64,000 nucleotides of DNA, from the IMG/VR virus record IMGVR_UViG_3300036760_001167, positions 1 through 64,000 of that record; one strand, given 5' to 3'. Position numbers and translations under genes: made by a program. The stretch is from a virus. The notes under the pieces are model-generated. The model ran no database searches and had not been told where the DNA came from. It was given only the letters and a program-made list of their open reading frames with translations. This document shows, piece after piece, positions 18,929-39,500 of this stretch (positions are counted from its first letter, which is position 1; every line of letters begins with the position of its first letter).

Positions 18929-20524
18929 TCAGATCTGGATGCGCTCCCTGGCCTTCTTGGCCCTGTGGACCGGCGCGATCGGCGCGGCCTCTCCGCCTAG
19001 CGGGTGCTGCGCGCACAGCTCGAGCATCTGCGCGCGGTTGATCGCGCTCCGGTAGACCGAGTTCAGCGCGCGGTTGGCGGAGCTCGCGCTCTCGCCCTCC
19101 CACACCCTGCCGCCGCGCGACGGCCTCGGGTGGTAGAGCGTGACGACGTCGTGGCCGGTCCTGAGCAGCCGCGCGTTCCCGAGCACCCTCGCGCAGGCGA
19201 CCGCGAAGCAGACGTCCTCGTGGCCCCAGCCGCGGAACCTCGGGTCCATCCCGCAGACGAGCTCGAACGACTCCCGCCTGATGACGACGAGCGTCGCCGC
19301 GGTCCGCTGGCCGGGGCTGGAGAAGGCCCGGCGCCTGACCTCGGGCGACAGGTCGAAGTCCGCGTCGGGCGGGCCGTCGGTCATCAGGTTGGAGTCCGCC
19401 TCGGTGAGCCGGACGACCTTCCGCCACGGGACCACGAGCCGCCCCGTCTCCGCCGCCTCGCCGCCCGCGGCGAGGAGCGCGCCGGTGTCCATCCAGCAGT
19501 CCGCGTCCGCGATCACCAGGATGTCCCGCGTCGACCTGAGGAACGCGTCGTTGACCGCCGTCGTCTTCGAGAACGGGACGCCGCCCGAGTCGGCGCCGAC
19601 CACGATCTCGGCCTCCGGGAACTTCAGCGCCCACCGCTCGCGCAGCCACGACCACGCGACCAGCCTGTGGTCGCTGCCCGTCTCCGCGCGGAACGGGACC
19701 AGGATCGACACGCGGTCCGGCGCGACTGGCGCGGGCGGCACGCGCGCGGCGGCCGGCTTGGCCCTGGACGTGACCCTCGCCTCCCGCGCCTCCCTGAGCT
19801 TCTGCCTGCGCTGCTCGGTCAGGGCCCTGCCCGTCACCTTCTCCCGCTCACGGGCGGCCTTGGCCCGCCAGGCCGCGTCGTCGGCCGCGCGCCGCTCCGC
19901 GGGCTTCCACCCCGCGTTCCAGTGGTGGACCGCGAACGACTCGGCGGGGTAGGGCCCGCCGAGGAGCTCCATCTCCTTGTAGTGGACCGGGAAGAAGGAG
20001 ATCGGGCGGAGCCTGCGCACGTCCGGGCGGTGGCGCCACTGCGCGGTGACGAAGCCAGGGCCGGTCAGCGAGGGCGGGCCGCCCTTGTTCCCGGGCGGGC
20101 CCTCGAACGACGCGACGCTCTCGACAAGGGCGACCGCCGCGGGGTGCCCCGGCGGGGACGCGATCACCGCCGGGTCGAGCTCCCAGTCGTCCTCCCACGC
20201 GATGAACGGGCGGGGGTCTGCCATCAGCTCGTCGAACGCGCGGAGCGGCTCGACGTCCGCGTCGAGGTAGACCCCGCCGTACTTCGCCAGGATCTCGTAC
20301 CGCAGGACGTCGGACCGGGTCGCGTACGAGGAGACTCCCTCGGCCTCCAGCGTCGCCGCGTCGAACATCTCGCGGTTCTTGATCCACCCCAGCTCGCCGG
20401 AGTCCGCCCACGTGCGGAACTCCCAGCCCCGCGGGTGGAGCTCGCGCAGCTTGGCCCAGAACTCCTCGAACTTCTCGGGCACCGGCTCGTCGAGCCAGAT
20501 CCGGTGGAAGACGCGCGGGATCAC
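18929..20524 (-). CDS. Two-domain glycosyltransferase (GT32/OCH1-like DXD domain plus GT2-like domain)
   Basis: GTG start IPRVFHRIW; RSDVLRYEILAKYGGVYLDAD, TGP and AVHHW; second domain ILVPFR...FSKTTAVN...IADAD...GMDPRFRGWGHED. Confidence 0.85.
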   Translation of the reverse strand: MIPRVFHRIWLDEPVPEKFEEFWAKLRELHPRGWEFRTWADSGELGWIKNREMFDAATLEAEGVSSYATRSDVLRYEILAKYGGVYLDADVEPLRAFDELMADPRPFIAWEDDWELDPAVIASPPGHPAAVALVESVASFEGPPGNKGGPPSLTGPGFVTAQWRHRPDVRRLRPISFFPVHYKEMELLGGPYPAESFAVHHWNAGWKPAERRAADDAAWRAKAAREREKVTGRALTEQRRQKLREAREARVTSRAKPAAARVPPAPVAPDRVSILVPFRAETGSDHRLVAWSWLRERWALKFPEAEIVVGADSGGVPFSKTTAVNDAFLRSTRDILVIADADCWMDTGALLAAGGEAAETGRLVVPWRKVVRLTEADSNLMTDGPPDADFDLSPEVRRRAFSSPGQRTAATLVVIRRESFELVCGMDPRFRGWGHEDVCFAVACARVLGNARLLRTGHDVVTLYHPRPSRGGRVWEGESASSANRALNSVYRSAINRAQMLELCAQHPLGGEAAPIAPVHRAKKARERIQI

Positions 20525-21114
20525 AGCTCCCACAGCCCCAGCACCTTCGTCGCGGGCGGCGGCTGCTCGCGGTCGCCTGTCCGCCCGTCGGGGATCGTCT
20601 CGAGCGGCGGGCCGAGCGAGAACGGCTCGGCCGACAGGTCCGGGCAGTAGGTGTCGCCGATCGCCACGTCGACGTTCGCGCCCTCCAGGTACGTCGACGC
20701 CAGGAGCCACCGCGCGCCGGTGTCGCGGAACGTCGCGAGGCACCTGGCGCAGTCGCCCAGGGGGAGGTGCTGCATCGCGTCGCGCGTCAGGACCAGGTCT
20801 GCGCGCGGGAGCACTGGCATCCCGGTCCGCAGGTCGCCGAGCAGGTACGCGCGGTCCGGGTGCGCGTCGCGCGCCGCCTTGAGGGCCGACGGTGACCCGT
20901 CGACGCCCACGTAGCCCGGCAGCTCCGGCACCCAGAACCCCTCGCCGCAGCCCGCGTCGAGGACGCGCCTGACCGCGGGCCTGAGCCGGCCGACCAGCTC
21001 GGCGACGGCGGGCGCGACGAGCTCGGTGGCCCAGAGCGTCGAGCCGGGGCCCGAGCGCGTCTCGGTCCCGTTCCACCAGTTCCGCTCGTAGATCCTCTCG
21101 AACTCCGGGATCAC
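20521..21114 (-). CDS. Class I SAM-dependent methyltransferase (glycan-associated type)
   Basis: FERIYERNWW...SGPGS...VLDAGCGEG...DLVLTRDAMQHL. Confidence 0.85.
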   Translation of the reverse strand: MIPEFERIYERNWWNGTETRSGPGSTLWATELVAPAVAELVGRLRPAVRRVLDAGCGEGFWVPELPGYVGVDGSPSALKAARDAHPDRAYLLGDLRTGMPVLPRADLVLTRDAMQHLPLGDCARCLATFRDTGARWLLASTYLEGANVDVAIGDTYCPDLSAEPFSLGPPLETIPDGRTGDREQPPPATKVLGLWEL

Positions 21115-21710
21115 GCGCGCCTCCTCGCCGTCCAGAGCGTCTCGGCGAGCGGCGCGGCCTCCCACTCGCCGGTGGGCAGGATGTGCCGGCCGACGACGCG
21201 CGCGGTGTCCGGGAACCCGTGGCTGTAGTCGTGGAGCGCGAGCCACCCGCCCGGCGCGATGTGCGGGGACCAGAGCGTGAAGTCCTCGAGGATGCTGTCG
21301 TACTCGTGGACCGCGTCGACGAAGAGCAGGCCGACCGGCCGCCCGTCCCACGCCGCTGCGGCCTCCGCGGAGGTGGCGCGGACCGGGACGACCCTGTCCT
21401 CGACGCCGCACGCGCGGACGTTCTCGGTGAACTTCGCGAGCCACGCGTCGCCCGTCTTCAGGTCCCACGGGTCGTCGGTCCCCTCGCGGCCCGGCCGCGG
21501 GCCGAGCCAGGGGTCGACGCAGGTCACGCGCACGCCCGCCGCCACCGAGGCGGCCATCCAGCAGGACGACCTCCCCAGGTACGAGCCCACCTCGACGATC
21601 TCCTGCCCCGGCGGGACCCCCGCCGCGAGCTCGGCCAGGCGTGCGCCCTCGCGCTCGGAGAACCAGCCGCCGATGCCGCGGATCACCTCGAGCGTCGCGG
21701 GCGCGATCAC
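21111..21710 (-). CDS. Class I SAM-dependent methyltransferase (Methyltransf_24-like)
   Basis: GWFS...IVEVGSYLGRS...VDPW...LLFVDAVHEY...PGGWLALHDY. Confidence 0.88.
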   Translation of the reverse strand: MIAPATLEVIRGIGGWFSEREGARLAELAAGVPPGQEIVEVGSYLGRSSCWMAASVAAGVRVTCVDPWLGPRPGREGTDDPWDLKTGDAWLAKFTENVRACGVEDRVVPVRATSAEAAAAWDGRPVGLLFVDAVHEYDSILEDFTLWSPHIAPGGWLALHDYSHGFPDTARVVGRHILPTGEWEAAPLAETLWTARRRA

Positions 21711-22444
21711 TTCTCCTCCTTGACGTCGTACCCGCGCAGCCAGGTCCTCGCCATCGAGCGGACCTTGAAGTAGCCGCAGTCCCGCCAGCGGACGCGCTTC
21801 CCCAGGAGCGCGGCCGCGATCATCACGTGCGCCCTGTCGGTGCGGACTTCCTCGGCCCCGGCGATCGCGCCGAGCCACTCCTCGAGCGAGCTCCTGGTCA
21901 GGGAGATGTCGTCGTTGCCGTCCGGGACCCACCCGCGCGCCGACTCGTGGTCCGTGCGGTACGCGAGGAGCGTGCCGCTCCCGGAGCGCTGGTACTGGGA
22001 CAGGTCGGTGAAGAACGACGGGCAGTGCGCCAGCGTGGACCTCGGCACCCGCCGCGCGGACTCCTCCTCTCGCGAGAACAGCCGCGCCTTCGTGAGCTTG
22101 AGGGAGTGCCTGGTCCTGGCGTCGGTCGTGTCGAAGGACGAGGGGAACACGACGGCCCGCGCGAAGCCGTGCGCGCTCGCCATGACCTCCGGCGAGTGCG
22201 CCCAGTACCTGCACCAGCCGCCGCCGCCTCCCAGCAGGAGCAGGTCCCCGCGCAGCGTCCTGACGCTCTCGGCGCCGTCGACGTGGACGAAGCTGTAGGG
22301 GATGCCGGCCCCGCCGAGCAGCGCGCGGGTCCCGGCCTCGATCAGGTCGTCGCCGCGGTTCCCCTCGTACCGGAGGAAGGTCACGTCCGCGCCGCGGACC
22401 GCTCCGAGCAGGAGCTCCCTCGACTCCTCGAGCGTCGGCGGCAT
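21707..22444 (-). CDS. Polysaccharide pyruvyl transferase-like protein
   Basis: GNRGDDLI, LGGGG, FSREEES and VRTDRAHVMIAAALLG motifs. Confidence 0.75.
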   Translation of the reverse strand: MPPTLEESRELLLGAVRGADVTFLRYEGNRGDDLIEAGTRALLGGAGIPYSFVHVDGAESVRTLRGDLLLLGGGGGWCRYWAHSPEVMASAHGFARAVVFPSSFDTTDARTRHSLKLTKARLFSREEESARRVPRSTLAHCPSFFTDLSQYQRSGSGTLLAYRTDHESARGWVPDGNDDISLTRSSLEEWLGAIAGAEEVRTDRAHVMIAAALLGKRVRWRDCGYFKVRSMARTWLRGYDVKEEK

Positions 22445-23118
22445 CAGAAGACGGCCTTCGCGTTCACGAGGCCCTTGTTCGCGGCCCACGCGTCGATGAG
22501 GTCCTTGTTCGCGACAAGCGCCTCGCCGTACAGCTTGTCCGACTGGCGCTTCACCTTGCCGGAGAACGGCTGGTGCCAGAGGTGCCACGCCTGGCCCGGC
22601 AGCCTGTCCCACGGGCCCGCGCGCAGGAGGCTCAGGTTCAGGGCGGAGTCCTCGCGGCCCCACTCGACGTATCGCTCGTCGAAGCCGCCCACCGACTCCC
22701 ACGCGTCGCGCGTCAAGACGAGCAGCCCGCCGCCCGCCCACTGCGGGCCGAAGTGGTGCGGCTCGAGCGCCGCCTGCCCGCGCGTGACCAGCGCGACGGT
22801 GCCGTCCTTCGTCAGCATCCAGCGCTCGTCGTGCGGCCTCGCGGCGCCGCCGGTGTCGAGGACCCACGCGACCGCGCGCCTGACGGCGCCGGGGTCCGGG
22901 ATCGTGTCGGAGTCCGAGACGAGCGCGACGTCCCACCTGCCGGCGGCGGCCGCGGCGGCGTTCACCGCACGCCCTCGCGCCCACGGGCCCTCCGAGTCGC
23001 CCAGGAAGATCGGGTATCCCAGCCCCTCGAGCGACGGCAGCGCCATGTCCCAGCACCACTCCCGCCGGTCGTCGCCGGACCGCCACGGGACCAGCGTCAC
23101 CACCCTCGTCTTGGGCAC
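22444..23118 (-). CDS. Glycosyltransferase (GT2 / galactosyltransferase C-terminal-like)
   Basis: LVPWR, RGRAVN, VSDSD (DXD), GGFDERYVEWGRED, HLWH. Confidence 0.88.
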   Translation of the reverse strand: MPKTRVVTLVPWRSGDDRREWCWDMALPSLEGLGYPIFLGDSEGPWARGRAVNAAAAAAGRWDVALVSDSDTIPDPGAVRRAVAWVLDTGGAARPHDERWMLTKDGTVALVTRGQAALEPHHFGPQWAGGGLLVLTRDAWESVGGFDERYVEWGREDSALNLSLLRAGPWDRLPGQAWHLWHQPFSGKVKRQSDKLYGEALVANKDLIDAWAANKGLVNAKAVF

Positions 23119-26668: not shown

Positions 26669-26980
26669 TCACCGCGGAAGGACCGCGGCTTCGCCCGGCG
26701 CCCAGACGTAGCGGTCGATCGGGTTCGGCGGCGGGTCCGGAGGCGGCGCGTGCTCCGTCGCCTCGGCCCACAGGTACGGCGCGTTGCGCAGCCTGCCCGG
26801 CAGCTCGGAGACGAATAGGTCGCCCTGCGCCGGGTCGAGGCCGCGCGCTACCTGCTGGCGCATCAGGCGGTCGATGCCCGCGTCCCACTCTGCGCGGCCG
26901 TCGACGACCCTGACCTGCCCGAGCTGCCTCGGCCCGCCGTCCTGCGGAGAGCCGCGCCAGGTGTACAGCGTCGCGATCAT
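26669..26980 (-). CDS. Small hypothetical protein, candidate immunity protein
   Basis: MIATLYTWRG..., 103 aa, start overlaps the stop of the toxin-domain gene. Confidence 0.55.
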   Translation of the reverse strand: MIATLYTWRGSPQDGGPRQLGQVRVVDGRAEWDAGIDRLMRQQVARGLDPAQGDLFVSELPGRLRNAPYLWAEATEHAPPPDPPPNPIDRYVWAPGEAAVLPR

Positions 26981-29163
26981 CACGTCCTCCACTGGCCGGT
27001 CGTGAGGATGTGGTCGATCCTCTCGAACATGGCGTCGACGTCGACGAAGCCGTCCCACTGCTGGCGGATGGACGCCTCGTCCTCGACCATTGTGTCGAGG
27101 ATCGTGCGCTGCGCGTCGGTGAGGACCATGTCGCCGGACAGCGACTCCCTGATCGCGCTGTCGTACAGCGCGCCGCCGCCGGGGAAGGTCAGCGAGCCCG
27201 TCTGCGTGAACGCGAGGCCGTGGTCCAGCGCGACCAGGTGGTGGTCCGCGGTGATCAGCCAGTTCCCGTCGTTGCGGTCGAGGTTGCCGATGACCTGGTC
27301 GAAGAGGACCATCGACTGCCGCTCCTGGAGCGGGATCCGGCTGACCGCGTCCTCGAGCGCGGCCTGCGCCCCGCCCGTCGACCGCGCCTCGTAGATCTCG
27401 AGCCCCGTCTTGCCGGGCACCTTGGCGGACACGAGCGTGAAGTCCGGGTTCTCGGAGGTGCGCGGGAGCAGCACGTTGAACCCGTAGTCCTCGTTGAAGG
27501 ACTGCGCCGCGAGCTCGGCGGCCTGCTCCTCGGACGGGACCACCTTCAGGACGACGTCGAGCTTCGAGCCGTCCGCCTGCGCGACCGTGCCCCAGTGGGG
27601 CGCGTTGATCCCGGTCCCGATCGCCTTGCCCTCCGTCGCCGTCGACTGGAGCGCGTCGTCTAGCAAGGGGCTCATCCAGCTCGGGACGGCGGCACTCGGC
27701 GCGGGGCCAGCCGGGACGGCATGGACGAGCTGCACGTCGACGTACTTCGCGTCCGGGACGACCAGGTGCCCGAACTCGTCGCGGAGCTCGCTGACGTCGA
27801 TGCGCACCGTGTCGACGCCCGTGACCTCGAGCGGCGTGCCGCGCGGCAGGATCAGCTCGGCCTCCTGGCCGACGCCGCCCATCGCGCTCGTGCCCGCGGG
27901 GAGGCTGATCTCCCACACGGCCGGGTTGTCCGACGTGCCGCCCGCGAACTTGGCGGCGACGCCCGGGTCGAGCGACGTCGACAGGTAGGCCGGGTCGGCG
28001 GTCGGCCCGAGCCCCGCGACGCCCGGCCCGCCCCGGAACACGACGAGCGGCTGGTCCAGCCACGACCGCGCGAGCGCGCTGTCGAGGCCGCCGACGACGT
28101 CGCCGACCTGGGCGGCGTCGATCGTCTCCAGCACGTCGGCCGAACCCGAGCGGAGGTACGCGTTGACGTCGGTCGAGACGTCGGTGTTCTCGTACGCCTT
28201 GAGGGCCGCCGCCTCGACGTCCGTCAGCTCTGGCATGCTGGAGGTCGCGAACCGCGCCGCCGACTGGAACTCCGCGGTCGCCGCGTTGGCCGCCAGCACG
28301 CCGGCGGCGTCGGGGGCGGCGGCGGAGGCGTCCACGACGTGCGCCTTGATCACCTGCAGGTAGCGGATCTCCTGCTGGGACTCCTGGCCGATGACGAGCT
28401 GCGCCGTGCCGAACTCGTCGACGACGAGCGTCGTGCCGCGGCCGAGGATGACCTCGCCCTCGGTGTCGAGGCCGAGCGCGACGCCGGTCCCCGCGGGGAC
28501 GGTGATGTCGTAGAGCGCCGGGTCCTGCGCGTACTCCGAGACGAAGTCCGCGGCCATCCCGCGGTCGATGCTCGTGGACATGAAGCCCTGGTCCGTGATG
28601 ACCGTGCCCCGGTCGAGGCCGGTCCTGATCGCGACGCCGCCGCGGTGCAGCACGACGTCGCCGGGGAGCGGGTTCCGCGCGACGAGCGAGTCCAGCCCGT
28701 CCGCGACGCCGCGGACCAGGTCGCCCGCCCCGAGGGCCGCCGGGTCGCCGCCCGCCCTCAGGTACTCGTTCACGTAGGAGAAGTCGCTGACCGAGTACGA
28801 CTCGACGGCGCTCGCCTCCGCGGCCGTCGGCTCGGCCGTCAGCTTGCCGACGAGGTTCGAGTACAGCGTCTCGCCGAGCGGGCTGAGCTGGCGGTCCTCG
28901 GGGAACGGCACCTCGATGTCGGGGTACTCGATCGGGCCGCCGGCCGGAGCCTCGGGCGGCGCCTCGGGCGGCGCGACCTCGCCGTCGACGAGCATCAGGC
29001 AGGTGCAGCCAGCCGTCTCGTCGGCGCTGCCCGTCGGGTCGCCGGGGTAGTAGAGGCCGTTGGAGAACGGGTCGCCGTACGGGACCGTCTCGCCGTCGAT
29101 CGCCTCGTGGCTCGGGCGCGGCTTGTCGCTCGTCACGACCCAGGTCTTGTCGACCTCAGCCAC
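26980..29163 (-). CDS. MuF C-terminal half fused to two VIP2-like ADP-ribosyltransferase domains and a PI3/4K/HipA-like kinase domain
   Basis: KTW...RPSH...DG...PGDP...CTC (MuF); two copies of N-x-YLR...RG...STS...E-x-E; FDQVIGNLDRNDGNWL...LDHGLAF. Confidence 0.85.
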   Translation of the reverse strand: MAEVDKTWVVTSDKPRPSHEAIDGETVPYGDPFSNGLYYPGDPTGSADETAGCTCLMLVDGEVAPPEAPPEAPAGGPIEYPDIEVPFPEDRQLSPLGETLYSNLVGKLTAEPTAAEASAVESYSVSDFSYVNEYLRAGGDPAALGAGDLVRGVADGLDSLVARNPLPGDVVLHRGGVAIRTGLDRGTVITDQGFMSTSIDRGMAADFVSEYAQDPALYDITVPAGTGVALGLDTEGEVILGRGTTLVVDEFGTAQLVIGQESQQEIRYLQVIKAHVVDASAAAPDAAGVLAANAATAEFQSAARFATSSMPELTDVEAAALKAYENTDVSTDVNAYLRSGSADVLETIDAAQVGDVVGGLDSALARSWLDQPLVVFRGGPGVAGLGPTADPAYLSTSLDPGVAAKFAGGTSDNPAVWEISLPAGTSAMGGVGQEAELILPRGTPLEVTGVDTVRIDVSELRDEFGHLVVPDAKYVDVQLVHAVPAGPAPSAAVPSWMSPLLDDALQSTATEGKAIGTGINAPHWGTVAQADGSKLDVVLKVVPSEEQAAELAAQSFNEDYGFNVLLPRTSENPDFTLVSAKVPGKTGLEIYEARSTGGAQAALEDAVSRIPLQERQSMVLFDQVIGNLDRNDGNWLITADHHLVALDHGLAFTQTGSLTFPGGGALYDSAIRESLSGDMVLTDAQRTILDTMVEDEASIRQQWDGFVDVDAMFERIDHILTTGQWRT

Positions 29164-31007: not shown

Positions 31008-31316
31008 TTAGTCCGAGCCCGAGTCCGGGGTGGCGGGCACGGCGCCGGCCCAGCCGCGGTAGCGGTGCCCGCGCTCGGAGGCGGTCAGGCCGCCCCGGAT
31101 GCCGTAGCTCGGGGCGCCGCCGGCGCCGTCGTGGGCCGAGCGGGCCAGGCACTCCTCGCGGATCTGGCACGCGCCGCAGAGCTCGAGCGCCTCGAGGATC
31201 CGGAGCGGGTCCGGAAGCCGGCCGTCGTCGGCCGCGTTCTCCACCTCGAAGAAGCCCTCCGGGTCGGGGGCGTCGACGCACTCCGCGAGCTCTGCCCACC
31301 AGACCCTCTCGAGCAC
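31008..31316 (-). CDS. WhiB-family transcription factor
   Basis: W...AEC...FF...C-x2-C-x5-C...GIRGGLT-x2-ER. Confidence 0.88.
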   Translation of the reverse strand: MLERVWWAELAECVDAPDPEGFFEVENAADDGRLPDPLRILEALELCGACQIREECLARSAHDGAGGAPSYGIRGGLTASERGHRYRGWAGAVPATPDSGSD

Positions 31317-31323
31317 GCCGCGG

Positions 31324-31662
31324 CTACTCGTCGGTCTCGGTGAGCCACTCGACCAGGGCCGGGTTCTCGCGGAGCGCCGCGAGGAGGAAGGCGTCGATCG
31401 CGTTGATGAACTGCTCCTCCTCCTTGGCCGGCATCTTGAGGCCCGCGCGTTCGACGCAGTGGTGCATCAGCTCGTGGACTACGACCGCGCGCTGCCCGTT
31501 CCTGGTCTGGCCCTTCGCGACGCGGATCACGTTGCCGCCGTAGTCCCCGCCGATCTCGTAGCCGACCGCGAACTGCCCGATGCTCCTGAGCCACCGGATC
31601 CTGACCACCTGGCCGTCGACGTGGATCCTGTCCGGCCGCGTCTCCTTCGAGCTCCCGTTCAT
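31324..31662 (-). CDS. Small HExxH metallopeptidase-like protein
   Basis: VVVHELMHH followed by a downstream EE. Confidence 0.6.
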   Translation of the reverse strand: MNGSSKETRPDRIHVDGQVVRIRWLRSIGQFAVGYEIGGDYGGNVIRVAKGQTRNGQRAVVVHELMHHCVERAGLKMPAKEEEQFINAIDAFLLAALRENPALVEWLTETDE

Positions 31663-32510
31663 GCGTACTGTCCCGGCCTCTCCTCATCGTCGGCCGAGCT
31701 CGCCCGCCCGGCGTTCATCGCCTTGAGGAGCCGCAGCGTCTCGTCGTAGTCCGAGCCGATCACCTGCGTGGAGACCAGCAGCTCCTTCAGGTGGGCGAGC
31801 GACATCCCCTCCGTGTCCTTGACCATCCGGTCGACGTCGACGCGCACGCCCTCCGGGACGAGCGACCGCAAGTACTCGCCGCGCGCCGGCGCGGTCGGGT
31901 GCCCGATCTTGAAGCGCTTGTCGAAGCGGCTCGGCCGGTTCGCGATGCGCGGCGCCAGCACCTCGATGTAGTTGGTCGTCGCGAGGAAGACCACCTTCGG
32001 GTACTTCTCGACACCGTCCAGCAGGTTGAGCACCGCGGACTCATTCTCGTTGCGGCCCGCCAGGATCGCGTCGAGGTCCTCCATCAGCACGACGACGCGC
32101 GCCTCCGGCTGGATCGCGCGGATCTGCCGCAGCGCGATGTGCATGAGGTCCGGGCCGGGCCAGGTGATGACGAACCCGCCCGCCGCGATCACGTCCTGCG
32201 CGACGAGGGAGAGCGTGCTGGTCTTGCCGGAGCCGGGCGGGCCGTAGAGCAGGATCCCGCGCTTGTGCGTCATGCCGAACTTCTCGTACAGCTCGCCGCG
32301 CTCCCAGAACTGCTGGATCTCCGTCACCACCGCGTCGCCCGCGGTGCCGGGCAGCCGGAGCAGCTTGTCCGTGCCCATCTCGGCCCTGGTGAAGAAGAGC
32401 GTGCCGTTGGTGACCTGCACGTCGTAGAGGCCGGCGGGCATGACGTCGACCGTGTCGCTGACCGCGTAGTACATGCCGTTCGCGAAGCCCCACTGCGAGA
32501 CCAGCGGCAC
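31659..32510 (-). CDS. AAA+ ATPase
   Basis: KRGILLYGPPGSGKT (Walker A), VLMEDLD (Walker B), LNLLDG, ATTN, RPSRFD; GTG start after GGGAGG. Confidence 0.92.
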   Translation of the reverse strand: MPLVSQWGFANGMYYAVSDTVDVMPAGLYDVQVTNGTLFFTRAEMGTDKLLRLPGTAGDAVVTEIQQFWERGELYEKFGMTHKRGILLYGPPGSGKTSTLSLVAQDVIAAGGFVITWPGPDLMHIALRQIRAIQPEARVVVLMEDLDAILAGRNENESAVLNLLDGVEKYPKVVFLATTNYIEVLAPRIANRPSRFDKRFKIGHPTAPARGEYLRSLVPEGVRVDVDRMVKDTEGMSLAHLKELLVSTQVIGSDYDETLRLLKAMNAGRASSADDEERPGQYA

Positions 32511-32648
32511 GTCCCTCCCCTTCCTTGCCCGCTCCGTCACGTTGGTGACGCGGGGAACCCACCCCGCGCCGCGGCCGCTCCCACGACTCCTCGACACCGG
32601 CCGCCTTGAACCGTGCCGGTCCGTGGCAGCCACGCGGCCTTCCCTGCG

Positions 32649-32721
32649 TCCCCGGAGAAGGACTCGAACCCTCGGCCGTCGCGTTAGGACCGCGCCGCTC
32701 TTTCCTCTGAGCTACCCGGGG
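32649..32721 (-). tRNA. tRNA-Arg (CCU)
   Basis: Manual cloverleaf: CCCCGGG-TA-GCTC AGAGGAAA GAGC-G-GCGCG GTCCTAA CGCGA-CGGCC-GAGGG TTCGAGT CCTTC-TCCGGGG-A; CCA not encoded. Confidence 0.88.
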
Positions 32722-32727
32722 CTGAGC

Positions 32728-32753
32728 GGGAGGGCCGCCCTCGCGGCCCTCCC
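32728..32753 (-). terminator. Hairpin between the surface protein gene and the tRNA
   Basis: GGGAGGGCCGC-CCTC-GCGGCCCTCCC, an 11-bp stem. Confidence 0.55.
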
Positions 32754-32782
32754 GTCCTGCTTGGCTCCGATACCTTACCTCG

Positions 32783-33802
32783 TTACCTGCCTCCCCGCGT
32801 CACCGACGCGATGGACCGCTTCCGCGTGAGCGCGAGCGCGCCCAGGCCGAGCAGCGTCAGGAGCCCCATGCCGATCGCGGGCCGCGTGACGTTCGAGCCC
32901 GTCATCGCGAGGTCGCCGCCGGACGGCGGGCCACCCGCGAAGGTCGGGATCGGAGGCGCCGGCGTCCAGGTGGACTGCCAGCAGGGGAACTGGTCCGCCG
33001 GGCACGCCTTGGGCGGCGGCGTCGGCGAAGGGGTCTGGCAGCCGGCGTTGTCCACCGTGAGCGTCCGCACGTCGCCGCCGTTGAACGCGGCCGTGACCAC
33101 GGTCCCGTTCGCGAGCTGGCCGAGGTCCACGTCCGTCGGGTTGACGGAGATGGTCACGTCGGTGAAGACGCCGTCGACGCTGTAGTACGCGTTCCCGGTG
33201 CCCTCGAACCTGATGAACGTGTCCGTGCAGCTCGAGAAGATGAACGCCTCGGGCGTCGCGGGCGGTGGCGGCGGGGTCTGCGTGCCGATCGGCACGCACT
33301 GCCCGTCGTTGTTGAGCTCGTACCCCTCCGGGACCGTCGCCTGGTCGCCCTCGATGTTCGGGCAGACGTCGACGGGCGGGGGCGTGGTCGTCAGCGGCAC
33401 GCAGTCGCCGTTGTCGTCGATCACGTCGCCCTCCGGGACCGTCGCCTGGTCGCCCTCGATGTTCGGGCAGACGTCGGTCGGCGTGTCGCCGGACGGGCAG
33501 TCGCTCGCGGACGGGCTCTCCTGGCCGACGTCGAGGGCCAGCACGAAGCTCCGGCCCTGCGCGTCGTTGAAGTACAAGCCCACCACGACCGGGTCCTCGC
33601 CGATCGCGTTGAAGTCCACGTCGATCGGGTTCTGGCCGGTCTGCAGCGTCTCGTTCACGCCGGGCGTCCCGACGTACTTGCAGACGAACGCCTTGTGCGG
33701 CGCGGCCGTCGCGTTCGCGGCCATGATGTTCGCCCCGATCGGCAGGAGCACCACGGCCGTCACGGCAAGCGCCGCGAGCAGCTTGTTCCTTGTCCTCTTC
33801 AT
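32783..33802 (-). CDS. Sortase-anchored (LAXTG) cell-surface protein
   Basis: Signal peptide MKRTRNKLLAALAVTAVVLL; two DVCPNIEGDQATVPEG repeats; Pro/Thr linkers; C-terminal LAMTG, hydrophobic helix and RKR. Confidence 0.85.
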   Translation of the reverse strand: MKRTRNKLLAALAVTAVVLLPIGANIMAANATAAPHKAFVCKYVGTPGVNETLQTGQNPIDVDFNAIGEDPVVVGLYFNDAQGRSFVLALDVGQESPSASDCPSGDTPTDVCPNIEGDQATVPEGDVIDDNGDCVPLTTTPPPVDVCPNIEGDQATVPEGYELNNDGQCVPIGTQTPPPPPATPEAFIFSSCTDTFIRFEGTGNAYYSVDGVFTDVTISVNPTDVDLGQLANGTVVTAAFNGGDVRTLTVDNAGCQTPSPTPPPKACPADQFPCWQSTWTPAPPIPTFAGGPPSGGDLAMTGSNVTRPAIGMGLLTLLGLGALALTRKRSIASVTRGGR

Positions 33803-33848
33803 CTCCGTCTCCTCTCGCGCAGGCTTGTGACCTGCCTCCATCCGCATC

Positions 33849-34088
33849 TTACCTGGATGCGGCCGCCTTGTACACCCCCACCCGCTCTGCCACTGCGGCG
33901 AAGCCGGCGTGGATCGCGCTGGCCGCGCAGGCCCACGCCTCGGCGGCGCAGCTCTCGCCGTGGAACTCGAAGCGGGCCTCGTGCGGGCGGATGCCCGCGG
34001 CGAGGTCGCCCTTGTCCCGCACCGTCACGACGAAGTAGTCCACGCCTCCATCGTAGTGCCTCGTCGCCGCCTCCCTCGTCGCCCTCAT
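33849..34088 (-). CDS. Small hypothetical protein (MRATREAAT...)
   Basis: ATGA overlap with the tadG-like stop. Confidence 0.45.
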   Translation of the reverse strand: MRATREAATRHYDGGVDYFVVTVRDKGDLAAGIRPHEARFEFHGESCAAEAWACAASAIHAGFAAVAERVGVYKAAASR

Positions 34089-34780
34089 GCCGACAGCCAG
34101 ACGTGCGGGCTCGCGTCGTGCGGGCAGTCGACGGCCGGGTCGATGAAGTAGCTCTGGTTTGACTGCGGCACCGACGCGATCACGAAGGAGTCCTGCGCGT
34201 CGTTGAAACCGGTCGTCCCGTTCCACGGGAGGCCGCTGTGCCAGTCCTTGAGGTCGGAGCTGTTCACGCTCCTCCAGCCGCTCGCTGACACGCTGAGCCT
34301 CTCGGGGTTCCCGACGTACTTGCAGACGTAGACCTGCTTGTCGGCCCCGTTCACGGGGTGGAGCACCGCGGGCGTCAGCCCGTTCAGCCGCCACGAGCCG
34401 GTCGCCGCCACGGTGACGGTCCTCGAGTTGGAGAGGCCCAGGACCGGCGCGAAGTACAGCGGCTGCGTCGACGTGAACGTGACCGAGACGCTGCCGGTCA
34501 CGTTGTTGCACTGGCTGAGGTTCATCGTCCAGGTGAAGCCCGCGGCATGCGGCGCGTTCACCGGGAAGATCGCGAGCGCGTCCGCCTGCGCGGCCGGCGC
34601 GCCCAGCCCCTTCGAGCACTTGAGCGCGGCCGCCAGCGCGGCCGCGTCGGCGCCGTTGACCATCTCTCGCCGCCTGTACAGCATCCCGCCGACGTCGACC
34701 GTCAGCGCGACCGCGCCCATCATCACGACCAGCACGAGCGCCGTGACGACCGCGACGACGCCCTCCTCGCGGCGCCTCAT
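34085..34780 (-). CDS. TadG-like Flp pilus minor pilin
   Basis: MRRREEG|VVAVVTALVLVVMMGAVALTVDVG...NGADAAALAAA, the Tad N-terminal motif. Confidence 0.88.
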   Translation of the reverse strand: MRRREEGVVAVVTALVLVVMMGAVALTVDVGGMLYRRREMVNGADAAALAAALKCSKGLGAPAAQADALAIFPVNAPHAAGFTWTMNLSQCNNVTGSVSVTFTSTQPLYFAPVLGLSNSRTVTVAATGSWRLNGLTPAVLHPVNGADKQVYVCKYVGNPERLSVSASGWRSVNSSDLKDWHSGLPWNGTTGFNDAQDSFVIASVPQSNQSYFIDPAVDCPHDASPHVWLSA

Positions 34781-35169
34781 CGCTCGCACCTGAAGGTCGC
34801 CGCGATGTTCGTCGCGATGTGGAAGTCCGGGAGCAGCGGGATCGAGATCACGATGCCCTGGCCCCCGTTCAGCAGGCCCGTGTTGAAGCTCGCGGTCGAG
34901 TCGACGCCGGCGCCGTCGCAGGAGGTCACGAGCACCTGGGCGGCGGGCACGAGCCCTGCCGAGGTGTCCGAGACCTTCTGCTGGACGGTCGCGACGCAGG
35001 TTCCGCCGGGACAAACCGCGCCGGTGCGGGCGCCCTCGCGCACCGCGCCGCGGATGGTCTGGAGCTGCATGAAGCCCAGCCCGAACCCGATGACGCCGAA
35101 GACCAGCATGAACAGCAGCGGCGCGACGAGCGCGAACTCGACCGCCGCCGCCCCGCGCTCGCGCCTCAC
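34777..35169 (-). CDS. tadE: TadE-like minor pilin
   Basis: RRERG|AAAVEFALVAPLLFMLVFGVIGFG...AVREGAR. Confidence 0.9.
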   Translation of the reverse strand: MRRERGAAAVEFALVAPLLFMLVFGVIGFGLGFMQLQTIRGAVREGARTGAVCPGGTCVATVQQKVSDTSAGLVPAAQVLVTSCDGAGVDSTASFNTGLLNGGQGIVISIPLLPDFHIATNIAATFRCER

Positions 35170-35261
35170 TTCGAGACCGCCCGCGCGAAGAGCGAGAACG
35201 CTCCCCACACCATCACGTTCGCGGCCACTCCCACGAGCAGCCACGTCTTGAAGTTCTTCAT
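35166..35261 (-). CDS. 31-aa membrane peptide
   Basis: MKNFKTWLLVGVAANVMVWGAFSLFARAVSK; ATGA/GTGA overlaps with rtcB and tadE. Confidence 0.55.
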   Translation of the reverse strand: MKNFKTWLLVGVAANVMVWGAFSLFARAVSK

Positions 35262-36502
35262 CGCGTGCCTCCTGTCTTCCGGCGCCTGTCGTCGACGCCC
35301 TTGTAGTTCGCGATCGCGCGGAGCCTGTAGTCGACCCGCACGAGGTCGGCCTGGTCGGCCATTACCGTCTCGACGTCCTTGTACGCCTGCGGGCTCTCGT
35401 CCAGCAGGCTCGCCGCGTCGCCGTCCTGCCAGGCGACGCCCTCCATCCGCGCCGCGAAGTCCTCGAGCGCGACCTCCTTCCTGGCCCTGCCGCGCGACAT
35501 CACGCGGCCCGCGCCGTGCGAACAGCTCTCGTAGGACTCGGGGTTCCCGAGCCCGCTCACGACGAAGCTCGCCTGGCCCATGGCGCCGGGGATCAGGCCG
35601 CGGCTCGAGACGTGCGCGGCGATCGCGCCCTTGCGCGTGACGTACGCGTGCCGCCCGAGCTCCGCGACGCCCTCGAAGCTCACGTAGTTGTGGTGGCAGT
35701 TCACCTCGTCCTCGATCAGGAGGCGCTTCCCGGCGACCTCCTCGAGGGCGGCGTGGGCGCGGCGCAGGATCTGCCGACGGTTCTCGAGCGCGTACCGCTG
35801 CGCCCAGGAGACGTCCGCCACGTAGGCCGCGAACTCGCTGCCGCCGCGGTCGAGCCAGGCCAGGTCGAGCTCCGGCACCGTCTCGCCGGCCGCCGCGCGC
35901 TCCGCGCTGGGGTGCGGCTTGAGCGGCACGTCGGCGCCGTGGAGCAGCGCTGCGGCGTCGCCGTAGACCCGCGCCAGCTTGTTCCCCGCGCCGCGCGAGC
36001 CGGAGTGCAGCAGGATCCACACCTGCCCGAGCTCGTCGACGCTGAGCTCCACGAAGTGGTTCCCCGCGCCGAGCGTGCCGATCTGCCGGCCCGCGAGCGG
36101 GACGTCGTCGACCCTCGACGGCGCCGGGTCGCAGGCGATGAACTCCGCCGCCTCGTCGGACATCGCCCTGTCCCAGTGCCCCAGCCCCGCCGGGACGAGC
36201 CGCCCCACAGCCTCCACCCAGGCCGCGGCGTCGCCGTCGCCCAAGTCGCCCAAGTCCAGCGCCAGCCTGCGCGCGGCCATGCCGCAGCCGATGTCCACGC
36301 CGACCGCCATCGGGATGACCGCGTCCTCGGTCACGAGGACGCTGCCGATCGTGGCGCCGTGGCCGAGGTGCGCGTCCGGCATCAGCGCGACGGGCAGGCT
36401 CAGGATCGCGAGCTCCGCGGTCCGCTCCGCGGCCTCGCGGGCGTTGTCATCCAGGATGCTGGCCCAGCTCCGGACCCTGCCGTTCGCGAACGTCTCACGC
36501 AT
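35258..36502 (-). CDS. rtcB: RtcB RNA ligase
   Basis: MPDAHLG, GVDIGCG, GTLGAGNHFVE, HSGSRG, HHNY, RKGA, SHGAGR, DESPQAYK. Confidence 0.96.
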   Translation of the reverse strand: MRETFANGRVRSWASILDDNAREAAERTAELAILSLPVALMPDAHLGHGATIGSVLVTEDAVIPMAVGVDIGCGMAARRLALDLGDLGDGDAAAWVEAVGRLVPAGLGHWDRAMSDEAAEFIACDPAPSRVDDVPLAGRQIGTLGAGNHFVELSVDELGQVWILLHSGSRGAGNKLARVYGDAAALLHGADVPLKPHPSAERAAAGETVPELDLAWLDRGGSEFAAYVADVSWAQRYALENRRQILRRAHAALEEVAGKRLLIEDEVNCHHNYVSFEGVAELGRHAYVTRKGAIAAHVSSRGLIPGAMGQASFVVSGLGNPESYESCSHGAGRVMSRGRARKEVALEDFAARMEGVAWQDGDAASLLDESPQAYKDVETVMADQADLVRVDYRLRAIANYKGVDDRRRKTGGTR

Positions 36503-39500
36503 CTACTCCTCCGTCCCTCAGGATTCCCTCGGCGTCGCTCAGCACGCCGCGCAGGGCGGCGACCAGCACCTGCGAGGTCTCATGCTCGGGGTGCAGCCTG
36601 AGCATGTGGGTCGTCCACGCCTCGATGGCGAGGCGCTCCGCGTCCTCGTGGTCTTGCGGGTGCCAGGTCTCGCACACCTCGCAGCGCAGCTCCAGCACCT
36701 CGTCATCCACGGCCCAGCCTCCCCTCGCTCCAGAACTCGAGCTCGCCGCACGTCGCGGGCGGGCTCGCGTCCATCGCGAGCACCAGGCCCGGCACGATCT
36801 CGCGCTCGTACTGCTCCAGCTCGACCTTGTCCGCCGCGTCTTCGGGCATCGTCATCTCACTGCTCCTCCCGCTCGCGGCGCTCCAGCGCCAGGTACCACT
36901 CCTCGTCCAGGTCCGACTCGCGCGCCACCTCGCGGGCGAGCAGCGCGTCGACGCGGTCCTGCGTCGCCTCCATCAGCGCGTCGCCGGCGCGGGCGCCGAG
37001 CTCGAGCGGCGGGAGGAAGACCTCGAGCCTGCAGAAGCCGCGGCCGAGCGGGTCGACGTCGAAGCACCAGGCGAGCACCCTCGTCCCTCATGAGAAGCCG
37101 CCGACCCGGCCCGCTGCGTCCGCGAGCTCGAACGCGACCCAGGCAAGCGCCGCCACGACGGCGAGCACGCAGAAGACCCGCGCCCAGATCATCGTGGGAC
37201 CGCCAGGATCCGGGCCTCGGCCTCGTCGTACTCCTCGCGGTGCCGCTCCGGCAACGAGGAGAACTCGACCGTGTAGCCGTGCCGCTGGCCAGGGACCAGG
37301 CGGTCCGCGAGGGTCTCGCCCTCGGCCTCGGCCGCGTCGCGCAGCCTGGCCCTCAGCGCGTCGCCGAACTTTCCCTGGTTCCTCATGACGCCTCCTCCGT
37401 GTCCGCGATCGCCCGGCCGGTCGCCCTGACCCAGTCCGCGATCTGCTCGATGGTGCCCGCGTCCCACTCCTCGCCGCTCAGGTACTCGGCCATCTGGTCG
37501 AGCGCCCTGCCGTCCGGCAGCGGCGCCCACGGGTTGCCCGTGACCGCCAGCGCGCGGCGCGCGGCGTCGTCGCTCGGGTAGAGCGCGCACAGGTCGCAGC
37601 GGTACGGCTGCTCGACCTCGCCCTGGTCGCCCGGCCGCACCGTGAAGATCCCGGCGTTGGGCTGGGTGCCGCAGGCGTCGCACGCGCTCGGCTGGCTCAT
37701 CCGAGCCTCGTCCCGAGCACGCTGCCCTCCGCCTTGATGACCTCGGCAACGTTGTCCCGCTTCGCGTCCGCGCGCTCGTGGCGGCGCTCCTCGCGCATCC
37801 ACGCGGGCCGCGGCTCGCGGCGCTCCTGGCGCGGTGCCAGCTCGTCCTCGAGGCGCTCCATCTCCGTCGCGTTCACTCTGTGCCTCCTTGGTCGCTCTCG
37901 TGCCTGTGGCCGGACGGTGTTCCGTCCGACTCCGGGACGCAGTCGCCGCGGGCGCAGCCCGCGAAGACCGCGCGCCTCGCCTCGCAGTGGCCGCAGCCCT
38001 CGCGGTGCGACGCCTGGTGGTGCGCGTCGTCCCTGGCCGCGGCCGCCACCTCGCGCAGGACCGGCGCCTCCGATCGGCTCAGCCTGGCCTGGTCGGCCTC
38101 CGCGCTCTCGCCGGTCAGCTGGCGCGCGGCGGCGGCCTCCTCGACCTCCTCGACCGTCTCCTCGTCGACGTGCCCGGCCTCGACCAGCTCGCGCAGCGTC
38201 TCGGCGCGGCCGACCACCCAGTCGAGCTCGGCCATCGTCAGGCAGCCGGTATTCTGCAGCCCCGTCGCGCGCCACTCGGCGTCGACCCTGGCGCGGATGC
38301 TCTCGACGTCCATCATCAGAACCATCCTCCTTCGCGGATCCTCGTCCTCATGTCCTCGATGCTCAGGCGGGCGGCCATGAGCTTGTCGGCCGCGGTCGGG
38401 CGGTGCGCCGCGTGGTCGCGGGTCGCCTCGGCCCTCCGCCAGAACCAGCCGGAGTCCTCGGACCAGCGGCCGAGCTTGCTGCAGAGCCACTCCGCGAGCT
38501 CGCAGTCCGTCAGTCGCGCGGCGTTCGCGGCCTTGACGACCGCAGCGTCGACGCCCGCCTGGGCGCTGCGCATCAGGTGCCGCTCGCCGCCGTACCCGTA
38601 GTCGCTCTGCCGGTCGATGTCGGCGGCCGTGAAGTCGCGGCGGCCGATCGCGTCCGGGTTGTCGCAGGGCGCTCCCACGCCGTGCGTGCAGGTCTCAGGC
38701 ATGGGGCGCCTCCAGTCCGCGCAGCGCGTTGGCGAAGCGCAGCCGGGCGTCGGCGTCGTCGGCGCTCAGGCCCTCGGCGATGAGCGCGACCGCGTCGCGG
38801 CCCTCGAACTCGACGACGGACCAGCCGGCGTCAGTGACCTCGGTGCCGTACCAGCGCGCCCTCATGACTGGGCCTCGCGGGCCAGGTGCCGCTCGACGTC
38901 TAGCTCGGAGAACTTGTAGCGCTTGCTGTCGTCGAGGCACAGGGCGGAGATGCCGTACTTGGTCGAGCGCGGGTTCACGCCCACGATCTTGAAGCGCCGC
39001 ACGCCCACGGTGAACTCGGCGCCGAAGTGCTCGGGCCGCAGGCCGAAGGACGGCGCGTACCGCTCGAACTCGAGCTTGGCCGCGTCGGCCTGCTCGAAGA
39101 CCACCTTGTTGGGGCGGAAGGAGCTGCCGCCGCCGACCTTGACCGTCAAGCCGTGCGCCTGGGCGATCGCTGCGAGCGCTTGCTGCGCCTCTGTCGCGAG
39201 CGTCCTGCAGAGTGCCTTGTCCATCCCGTGCCTTGTCCATCTCGTCCATCCCTTCTGTCGAGCGCGGTCCGTCCGCCTCGCGGTTCCGCGCGTTCTTCGC
39301 CGCGCGGAGCCGTCAAGCGTCAGGCGTAGATGCTGGCGGAGAAGCGGCGGGCAACCTCGGCGTTGATGGCGTCGACTGCCTCTTGGTCGACGTACGCGCC
39401 GCCCAGGTTCTCGTGCTCCCAGACGACGGTGCTGCGGACGTCGGCGAGCTTGTCGCTGTTCATGGCCTTGAAGTTCCGGAGTCTTCCTGTGGGTCCGCGT

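Follow-up and report, generated by a model that had tools for sequence, protein, structure and literature searches.

We analyzed a viral gene module in which two proteins resembling minor pilins of Tad (Flp) pili are encoded next to a predicted sortase-anchored surface protein. Tad pili are widespread organelles of adhesion, predation and DNA uptake, and the specification of their tips is only beginning to be understood. The module is located in a stretch of 64,000 nucleotides (the window), which comprises the first 64 kb of the IMG/VR record IMGVR_UViG_3300036760_001167 (106,510 bp in total). CheckV puts the completeness of this record at 100%; it has direct terminal repeats, and a 64-bp exact terminal repeat was located. 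It is a complete phage genome of 106.5 kb. The GC content is ~72% across the genome, and 161 of the 168 open reading frames (ORFs) in a gene call based on the GC content at third codon positions (GC3) are on the minus strand.

The original prediction, which was made from the sequence of the window alone, had described a run of rtcB, a 31-amino-acid (aa) membrane peptide, TadE, TadG, a small ORF and an LAXTG surface protein. Every one of these elements is present on the minus strand (Table 1). The sizes given for the two pilins needed correction: the longest ORFs, of 155 aa for TadE and 309 aa for TadG, are too long, and the coupled start codons give 130 and 231 aa. The genes from rtcB to the 79-aa ORF are chained by four 4-nt overlaps, in which the ATG of the peptide overlaps the stop codon of rtcB (ATGA), the GTG of TadE that of the peptide (GTGA), and the starts of TadG and of the 79-aa ORF overlap the stops of TadE and TadG, respectively (both ATGA). 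A 46-nt gap with a GGAG-rich ribosome site separates the 79-aa ORF from the LAMTG gene. The inclusion of rtcB in the module is correct as far as translational coupling is concerned, but a role of this common phage gene (phrog_1075) at the cell surface is improbable; it is probably an upstream coupled gene outside the surface function.

Table 1. Features of the surface module and its borders (positions are those of the window).
Feature	Position	Strand	Size	Remarks
rtcB RNA ligase	35258..36502	-		PF01139, E 7e-91; phrog_1075, E 1.4e-113
Hydrophobic peptide ORF	35166..35261	-	31 aa	sequence MKNFKTWLLVGVAANVMVWGAFSLFARAVSK
TadE-type minor (pseudo)pilin	34777..35169	-	130 aa	GTG start; PF07811
TadG-like large minor pilin	34085..34780	-	231 aa	PF13400
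79-aa ORF	33849..34088	-	79 aa	no signal peptide
Secreted LAMTG surface protein	32783..33802	-	339 aa
GC-rich hairpin	32728..32753	-	12 bp	3' end of module
tRNA-Arg(CCT)	32648..32721	-		ARAGORN

The TadE protein matched the family PF07811 with 56.3 bits (cut-off 22.9; E 3.4e-15) and with 58.6 bits when the genome was searched in six frames. Its prepilin signal is made up of the leader MRRERG (6 residues), the stretch AAAVEF and then a hydrophobic helix; with the slash denoting the predicted cleavage position it reads MRRERG/AAAVEFALVAPLLFMLVFGVIGF. The glycine at position -1 and the glutamate at +5 are invariant in 12 of 12 aligned sequences. The phage protein retains 23 of the 25 columns that are invariant among its 11 relatives, and these include the two signal residues and the pair C84/C128. 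It is 70% identical to the TadE encoded at a locus from a metagenome-assembled genome (MAG; locus L007).

The TadG protein matched PF13400 ('Tad') with 38.4 bits (cut-off 22.3; E 1.6e-9), or 41.8 bits and E 1.8e-11 in six frames, and more weakly the NCBIfam model TIGR03816 (26.7 bits, cut-off 51). Its relatives carry the label 'Flp pilus assembly protein TadG' in the JGI (Joint Genome Institute) annotation, and 42 of 48 invariant columns are retained in the phage. The protein can be divided into an N-terminal helix plus beta-sheet (residues 1-135), a head with the motif 'VCKYVG' (residues ~145-220) and a conserved PHVWLSA tail. In an AlphaFold2 model of the protein, residues 1-130 contain a helix (2-56), a second helix (60-75) and three strands, with a predicted local distance difference test score (pLDDT) of 77-91. 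A search for sequence relatives of TadG in the PDB at E<=1 gave none.

The LAMTG protein starts with a Sec signal peptide, MKRTRNKLLAALAVTAVVLLPIGANIMAANA, and ends with LAMTG, 20 hydrophobic residues and the basic tail RKRS, which together make up a sortase sorting signal. LAXTG is the specificity of class E sortases; the NCBIfam models for LAETG and LAVTG remained below their cut-offs on this protein (E ~0.006). Between the two ends follow, in order, a VCKYVG domain, two Cys-bounded CPNIEGDQ repeats, an Ig-like beta-sandwich and a Pro-rich stalk, and three folded parts were modelled at pLDDT 82-94. Residues 182-255 gave generic matches (Z<=8) to immunoglobulin (Ig), fibronectin type III and carbohydrate-binding module CBM56-like folds. 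The two tandem repeats 'DVCPNIEGDQATVPEG...G.CVP' (33300-33480, minus strand) are nearly identical in DNA.

The head of TadG and the mature N-terminus of the LAMTG protein are related. Residues ~146-227 of the former align with residues 34-115 of the latter at 33% identity (BLASTP, E 5e-5). A hidden Markov model (HMM) of the domain 'VCKYVG...FNDAQ...DCP', which was built from LAMTG-type relatives and contained no TadG, found, in the genome translated in six frames, exactly two copies, one in the LAMTG protein (E 3.7e-38) and the other in TadG (E 4e-5). Many predicted surface proteins begin with this domain (283 relatives at E<=0.001), and in them it often precedes DUF11 repeats, Cys-bounded repeats of the type CPN(I/L)(E/D)G or an LPXTG/LAXTG signal. 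The closest full-length relative of the LAMTG protein (P0094) is 50% identical over 74% of the query and ends in LAFTG, and another one (P0109) is 42% identical over 83% of the query and ends in LPNTG; both have the same domain order as the phage protein. LAMTG-type relatives terminate in LAFTG, LPNTG or LPYTG. In a further sortase-anchored protein, P0196, a different Cys/His-rich N-terminal module takes the place of VCKYVG. The TadG base and its PHVWLS(N/A) tail likewise combine with either VCKYVG or a different Cys/His-rich module. Because such Cys/His-rich modules are swapped in both settings, the heads seem to be interchangeable between pilus tips and wall proteins.

The 31-aa peptide, which has a GC3 of 0.91, matched no family in Pfam, NCBIfam or PHROG and has no relatives. 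It was considered as an Flp/Fap pilin (PF04964) and rejected: it has no match to this family, no G/xxxxE motif and no glutamate at all. No credible hydrophobic ORF was found upstream of TadE in 76 related loci, where three candidates proposed by a script were not hydrophobic peptides. Judged by its sequence, the peptide is presumably a small membrane protein. The 79-aa ORF belongs to a family of proteins of 64-95 aa that have no signal peptide and contain the motif DY-VV-V-D...RFEF-GE...AW-C. It had no match in Pfam or PHROG. A search of 1.84 billion representatives gave 15 relatives at E<=0.001, among which one repeat protein is probably spurious; the closest homologue (P0208), encoded on a 13-kb contig, is 78% identical.

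It had been predicted that the window contains no Flp pilin, TadA/B/C, prepilin peptidase or sortase. This holds true, and not for the window only. In a Pfam scan of 165 ORFs of at least 40 aa from the whole genome, outside of which lay two ORFs that cross locus borders, no sortase, Flp, TadA/B/C or A24 peptidase was detected. When the entire 106,510-bp record was searched in six frames with family models, there was no sortase, A24 peptidase, T2SSE ATPase or T2SSF protein, and exactly one TadE and one TadG-like gene were found. The Flp model made contact only with the N-terminus of TadE, at 14 bits and below the cut-off. By both approaches the phage encodes no machinery but only its substrates, namely one for a sortase and two prepilin-like minor pilins.

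This machinery is found in bacteria that carry the nearest relatives of TadG, which sit in MAGs titled uncultured Actinomycetes or Actinomycetota. Each of five such MAGs (G001-G005) has several T2SSE ATPases, including some of TadA length, two to three Flp pilins, one A24 peptidase and a sortase. The single sortase from these MAGs that was scanned fitted best to the class E model, with 127 bits against a cut-off of 160. Relatives of TadG occurred in 19 of the 31 genomes searched, the unpublished genome G013 included. The loci of these MAGs have a GC content of 60-69%, versus 72% in the phage.

In bacteria the two pilin genes are usually neighbours. A total of 86 relatives of TadG were found at E<=0.001. 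The whole architecture of the phage protein is matched by 14 metagenomic relatives of 220-269 aa with 38-48% identity, and others, of ~332 aa, are related to it in their N-terminal 135 residues alone, with 52-59% identity. Genome and metagenome collections were scanned and gave 41 and 80 loci, respectively. A TadG match was present in 120 of these 121 loci and a TadE match in 96, and in 87 of the 96 TadE is directly upstream of TadG on the same strand, as expected if the two form an obligate pair. The flanks of 14 loci (144 ORFs) were scanned against Pfam. Two of the more distant ones, L113 and L115, represent the canonical type of tad locus, having Flp, RcpC, a ParA-like TadZ, TadA and T2SSF, and in L095 the pair adjoins a prepilin peptidase and PilM. 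The remaining 11 loci have no tad machinery within ~5 kb of the pair (in L009 and L107 the ORF calls missed the pair itself), which indicates that the pair is usually a stand-alone unit. These sequence comparisons show TadE-TadG to be a conserved two-gene cassette that is mainly cellular and has swappable TadG heads.

In five loci a soluble protein of 73-88 aa is encoded directly upstream of TadE (L007:9346-9606, L009:9336-9602, L077:5661-5885, L059:5881-6147 and L071:9346-9567). It has no match in Pfam, NCBIfam or PHROG and contains the motif ...AG(V/I)xYxxI...(I/V)S(F/W)N(D/E)A...Y..E.F, with the C-terminal form ...AGVxYxxI...ISFNDALExIYxERF. It may be a third, undescribed member of the cassette. 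The surroundings of two bacterial pairs hint that these cassettes sit in mobile or rearranged DNA: one pair has near-duplicate XRE-type regulators and duplicated genes for phosphoesterases at its flanks (L005:7305-13046), and another has a large serine recombinase gene 1.7 kb downstream (L007:12655-14046).

Next to these comparisons stands the phylogeny of the phage pair relative to host pilins, which the original prediction had proposed as a check. TadE and the N-terminus of TadG were near full length in 62 loci, 58 of them distinct, and the FastTree phylogeny of both has 59 tips. The phage clusters with the clade of the 332-337-aa TadG proteins with a Shimodaira-Hasegawa-like support of 0.954, and L007, L089 and L053 are its nearest neighbours in both single-gene trees. 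The type of its head is that of the clade formed by L008, L056 and L060. The phage thus joins the base of one clade to the head of another, a combination that was not seen in the cellular loci examined.

The second check that had been proposed was a search of viral databases. By tblastn (low-complexity filter on), neither the two pilins nor the LAMTG protein nor the 79-aa ORF had a relative in 50,697 GenBank phage records, and PHROGs contain no family for these four proteins or for the 31-aa peptide. Pattern scans of IMG/VR for the TadG, TadE, LAMTG and 79-aa families yielded no confirmed relative; such scans reach this subfamily only, and the phage's own record was possibly excluded from them. 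The portal protein has IMG/VR relatives of only 29-30% identity, and there is therefore no close phage relative for an analysis of synteny. A second contig family with a TadE-TadG pair of its own, probably of a phage, came from another comparison. When the 168 phage ORFs were compared with the 121 loci by tblastn, eight ORFs matched anything, and three metagenome records (L071, L073 and L074) matched four further phage proteins. These are a ribonucleotide reductase of class II with 60% identity across 661 aa, a protein of 374 aa with 64% identity (phrog_284 exonuclease), a 120-aa protein with 37% identity and, weakly, a secreted 159-aa protein. Contig L071 has a GC content of 55% and is densely coded on one strand, and its 73-aa ORF, TadE and TadG have overlapping starts and stops. 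The TadE has 139 aa and reads MKLNRQDG/AAAVEF. The TadG, of 274 aa (9983-10807; also in L073 and L074), combines the pilin base and a GPHVWLSN tail with a different Cys/His-rich head. No virion gene was detected within the 15 kb of L071 examined; the family is a probable phage. Its pair branches with the L008/L056 clade (support 0.999) and apart from the phage studied here, and from this separate branching it follows that phage-like genomes gained such cassettes at least twice.

The module genes do not stand out from the rest of the genome in GC content or in GC3, which ranges from 0.86 to 0.97. The concern had been raised that the segment might be a chimeric host fragment, recognizable by a break in coverage. 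Logan contigs from run X1, a possible source sample, span positions 31500-37000 at a depth of 74-83, and the single contig break in this span falls into the CPNIEG repeat inside the LAMTG gene (33342-33458), where the near identity of the tandem repeats in DNA explains it. In run X2, from another study, short contigs of low depth cover eight pieces of the stretch with zero differences, and these include the rtcB/peptide, TadE/TadG and TadG/79-aa ORF/LAMTG junctions. Since the read depth is even and shows no break in coverage, the module is not a chimeric host fragment.

A related explanation is that the phage picked up a host cassette and the gene for a surface protein accidentally and that neither has been selected for a role there, or that assembly joined them to its genome. 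The failure to find relatives in GenBank phage records, PHROGs and IMG/VR and the position of the module in a variable region between terminase and portal are what one would expect of such passenger DNA. We nevertheless consider this explanation very unlikely. The four consecutive start/stop overlaps tie the module into a phage operon, its GC3 equals that of the phage, the read depth and the identical sequence in a second study's run speak against an artefact, and a second phage-like lineage gained a TadE-TadG pair independently. The closest relatives are only 48-70% identical, which means that the module was not recently acquired.

Together, these results can be interpreted in the following way. 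In an infected or lysogenic cell, the TadE and TadG-like proteins would enter the membrane. The host prepilin peptidase would then cleave TadE at G/AAAVEF and TadG probably at G/VVAVV, and the two would pair as an alternative minor-pilin tip complex. This complex would prime host Flp filaments, so that the end of the pilus is the VCKYVG head of the phage. The LAMTG protein would be exported by Sec and linked to the wall by a class E-like sortase of the host, displaying the same head on the cell body. The benefit would most likely be a replacement of the receptor: the pilus keeps its function, and phages that attach at the tip or the surface, possibly including the phage's own progeny, are denied docking. 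Processing, pairing, incorporation into pili and the exclusion phenotype are steps that we infer, and it is our assumption that this host's phages use Tad pili as receptors. The module as a whole would be a host-derived Tad (Flp) tip cassette that relies on host machinery and serves receptor replacement, a reading to which we assign a probability of about 45%. One part of it, that the phage proteins are built into the Tad pili and the wall of the host, appears likely when considered separately; the other, that exclusion or receptor replacement is the selected benefit, is put forward tentatively.

The nearest precedent for this reading is found among minor pilins of the P-FimU type, which are encoded by F10-like prophages of Pseudomonas aeruginosa (Sztanko et al., Cell Rep 2026, PMC12952977). 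P-FimU enters the type IVa pilus, alters what its tip displays, leaves its function unaltered and blocks those phages that attach at the tip, and other phages, some of them non-temperate, encode PilA-like proteins (PMC12952977). The view of the original prediction that no phage system of this kind had been described must be modified to this extent, because the concept is published; that paper contains no mention of Tad, Flp or Gram-positive hosts, and in this respect the view stands. A search of the full-text literature found no paper on phage-encoded TadE or TadG, as judged by titles and the first part of abstracts. The phage studied here resembles the P-FimU phages in that it encodes a putative minor pilin for the tip of a host pilus, brings no machinery and has a diversified exposed part. 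P-FimU is a single protein of a type IVa pilus in a Gram-negative host, and its function has been demonstrated (PMC12952977); in contrast, the present case would involve a Tad/Flp pilus, a monoderm actinobacterium and a coupled pair together with a wall protein that has the same head, and its function is predicted from these features.

The predicted architecture also resembles the KilL/KilM/KilN Tad tip complexes of Myxococcus xanthus (Herrou et al., Nat Commun 2025, PMC12075869). In that system minor pilins of the TadE/F/G type form a tip complex that primes the Flp filament, a large TadG-like backbone exposes a modular C-terminal domain, and several unlinked paralogous tip clusters provide one machine with different tips (PMC12075869). 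The stand-alone TadE-TadG pairs match these unlinked, alternative Kil tip clusters. The Kil system differs from the phage module in being chromosomal, Gram-negative and made of three proteins, and in its need for the Flp-like adapter pilins KilK/KilO (PMC12075869). The phage has two pilins, and the adjacent 31-aa peptide has no Flp cleavage motif.

Closest of all in sequence are the Actinomycetota MAG cassettes (L003-L128), which agree with the phage in gene pair and order (87 of 96) and have TadE identities of 50-70%. The loci L008 and L056 even encode TadG proteins of 231-241 aa with a VCKYVG head and a PHVWLSN tail, as in the phage architecture. The MAG cassettes differ from the phage in their cellular context, in usually longer leaders and often in a small soluble protein upstream. 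They also have no adjacent LAMTG-type protein; a LAMTG query matched only the TadG head, in five loci. A known counterpart of the LAMTG protein is SasX of staphylococci, a prophage-carried LPXTG surface protein that is displayed via the host sortase. SasX comes from a different phylum, carries LPXTG and not LAXTG, has no homology to the LAMTG protein, is unlinked to pilin genes and has no domain in common with a pilus protein. New here are the class of pilus and the phylum of the host, a tip made from two genes, the modularity of its head and the coupling to a sortase substrate.

Several observations weigh against the interpretation as a receptor-replacing tip cassette. The C-terminal ~100 residues of TadG, that is the head, were modelled poorly (pLDDT <50). 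In a fold search the pilins PilJ (Z 5.2), GspK (Z 4.3) and PilV (Z 4.0) ranked below unrelated alpha/beta proteins at the top (Z 6.6), and the pilin fold of the modelled TadG N-terminus is therefore weakly distinguished from chance. No Pfam family covers the VCKYVG domain, and structure searches gave it no convincing neighbour: the LAMTG model was matched in residues 182-255 only, and a search of the ESM Atlas with residues 30-108 of the LAMTG protein returned nothing above 0.78, with a template modelling (TM) score <0.5. The LAMTG query matched only the TadG head and CPNIEG-type repeats in the five MAGs; none of them has a close LAMTG relative outside TadG, and they are for this reason candidate hosts only. 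Also missing from the phage is the soluble protein encoded before TadE in the second phage-like contig and in four host cassettes. The location between terminase and portal genes on a one-strand genome may mean that the module is expressed late, which would fit exclusion less well than early expression; no RNA run is among the sequencing runs listed for the stretch. A tail protein with a CBM96 module hints, moreover, that the receptor of the phage itself is a polysaccharide rather than a pilus. This protein, encoded in the tail region of the window (10979-12898, minus strand), contains a CBM96 carbohydrate-binding module and a Rha78A-like Ig domain.

The presence of one head domain on two independent display systems is what one would expect of a binding module and not only of a mask. 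It is thus conceivable that the proteins are incorporated in the same way, and that the VCKYVG head, on retractile pili and on the wall, makes cells that are infected or lysogenic adhere to particles, biofilm or neighbours. In that case new hosts would be kept close to the burst, or the lysogen would be fitter. The many sortase-anchored or DUF11 surface proteins that open with this domain point in the same direction, as do the inclusion of CBM56 and Bap among the matches of the LAMTG Ig-like sandwich (generic, Z 6-8) and the existence of prophage-borne LPXTG surface proteins such as SasX. Tad tips, furthermore, confer target specificity in Myxococcus (PMC12075869). However, the head domain has no known ligand, fold or family, and a short lytic cycle would leave little time for such a pay-off. 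A temperate lifestyle is doubtful, since a tyrosine recombinase stands alone in a genome that otherwise looks like that of a large replicative phage, with DNA polymerase A, ribonucleotide reductase, thymidylate synthase and ligase. Taken together, we regard a role in adhesion or aggregation as rather unlikely. The recombinase gene, located beyond the window at 99561-100205 of the 106-kb genome (L045:16561-17205), encodes 214 aa and matches PF00589 with E 7.5e-39.

In two respects the phage cassette departs from its bacterial relatives: the soluble protein before TadE is missing and the 31-aa membrane peptide is in its place, and the TadE leader is the shortest among the 12 aligned sequences. 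Both would suit a dominant-negative function, in which the phage pilins poison the tip complex or the platform of the host, no Tad pili are made and the receptor is gone. Phage proteins that shut down the assembly of type IV pili are known (PMC11436027, PMC11461919). On the other hand, nearly all family-invariant residues are kept in TadE and TadG, and the phage has a complete exposed head and a second, wall-anchored copy of it, both of which are needless for a mere plug. We therefore consider such jamming quite improbable, and prefer the reading that the pilins replace the tip of a working pilus.

Structural genes are found next to the module. On its 3' side are an AAA ATPase gene, a 112-aa ORF and the genes for WhiB and the portal, followed by those for a MuF-type ADP-ribosyltransferase/kinase fusion, for the prohead protease and for the capsid; on its 5' side are ~25 small ORFs and then the large terminase (phrog_19179). 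The module occupies a variable stretch between terminase and portal. With structural genes adjoining it, with no lysis cassette recognized in the genome by Pfam and with a 31-aa membrane peptide of the size of a holin, one could suppose that TadE and TadG have nothing to do with pili and act as envelope factors of the phage in lysis, egress or virion assembly, and that the LAMTG protein is an unrelated moron. This is extremely unlikely, given that the cassette is mainly cellular and widespread in bacterial contigs without a link to phage genes, that the prepilin motifs are intact, and that the common head domain ties TadG to the LAMTG protein.

The 3' end of the module is marked by a hairpin with a folding energy of -34.8 kcal/mol (z -4.07), which none of 200 shuffled sequences reached. 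In this folding model it looks like a terminator or a processing site, though it has no U-tract; a consensus scan for promoters and terminators of the region from 31 to 40 kb found no match. The tRNA-Arg(CCT) gene is a marker of the 3' border and lies outside the module. Between it and the portal gene (31008-32633, minus strand) are the AAA+ ATPase (324 aa), the 112-aa ORF (phrog_1233) and the WhiB-like regulator. Just after the portal gene, a 727-aa protein (26980-29163, minus strand) matches ADP-ribosyltransferase exoenzymes in three stretches (E 2e-27) and has a PI3/PI4-kinase or HipA-like kinase region at its C-terminus; it looks like a polymorphic toxin-like fusion in MuF position. Two glycosyltransferases, two methyltransferases and a polysaccharide pyruvyl transferase are encoded between the capsid and tail genes (18929-23118, minus strand), and this cluster suggests a modification of virion or host glycans.

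A more far-reaching version of the proposed tip replacement, which we consider unlikely, is that the phage reprogrammes the Tad tip and the sortase-anchored wall layer at once with one shared, unclassified binding module. If so, this module would come from a pool of heads that is traded among uncultured Actinomycetota and phages, and the new surface identity would hide pilus (long-range) and wall (short-range) receptors from rival phages; alternatively, retractile pili would pull cells and particles onto a matching wall coat. In that case the module would provide the first Tad tip complex encoded by a virus and, for a phage, the first coordinated remodelling of pilus and wall.

If the proposed function is correct, the strategy of replacing a receptor with the phage's own copy, known for type IVa pili in Pseudomonas, would also apply to Tad pili and reach monoderm Actinomycetota, and tip cassettes with swappable heads would be mobile between bacteria and viruses. 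The head that is common to the pilus and the wall protein offers a starting point in the search for the ligand that a large family of actinobacterial surface proteins, so far unannotated, recognizes, and the cassettes are candidate tools for the re-targeting of Tad pili.

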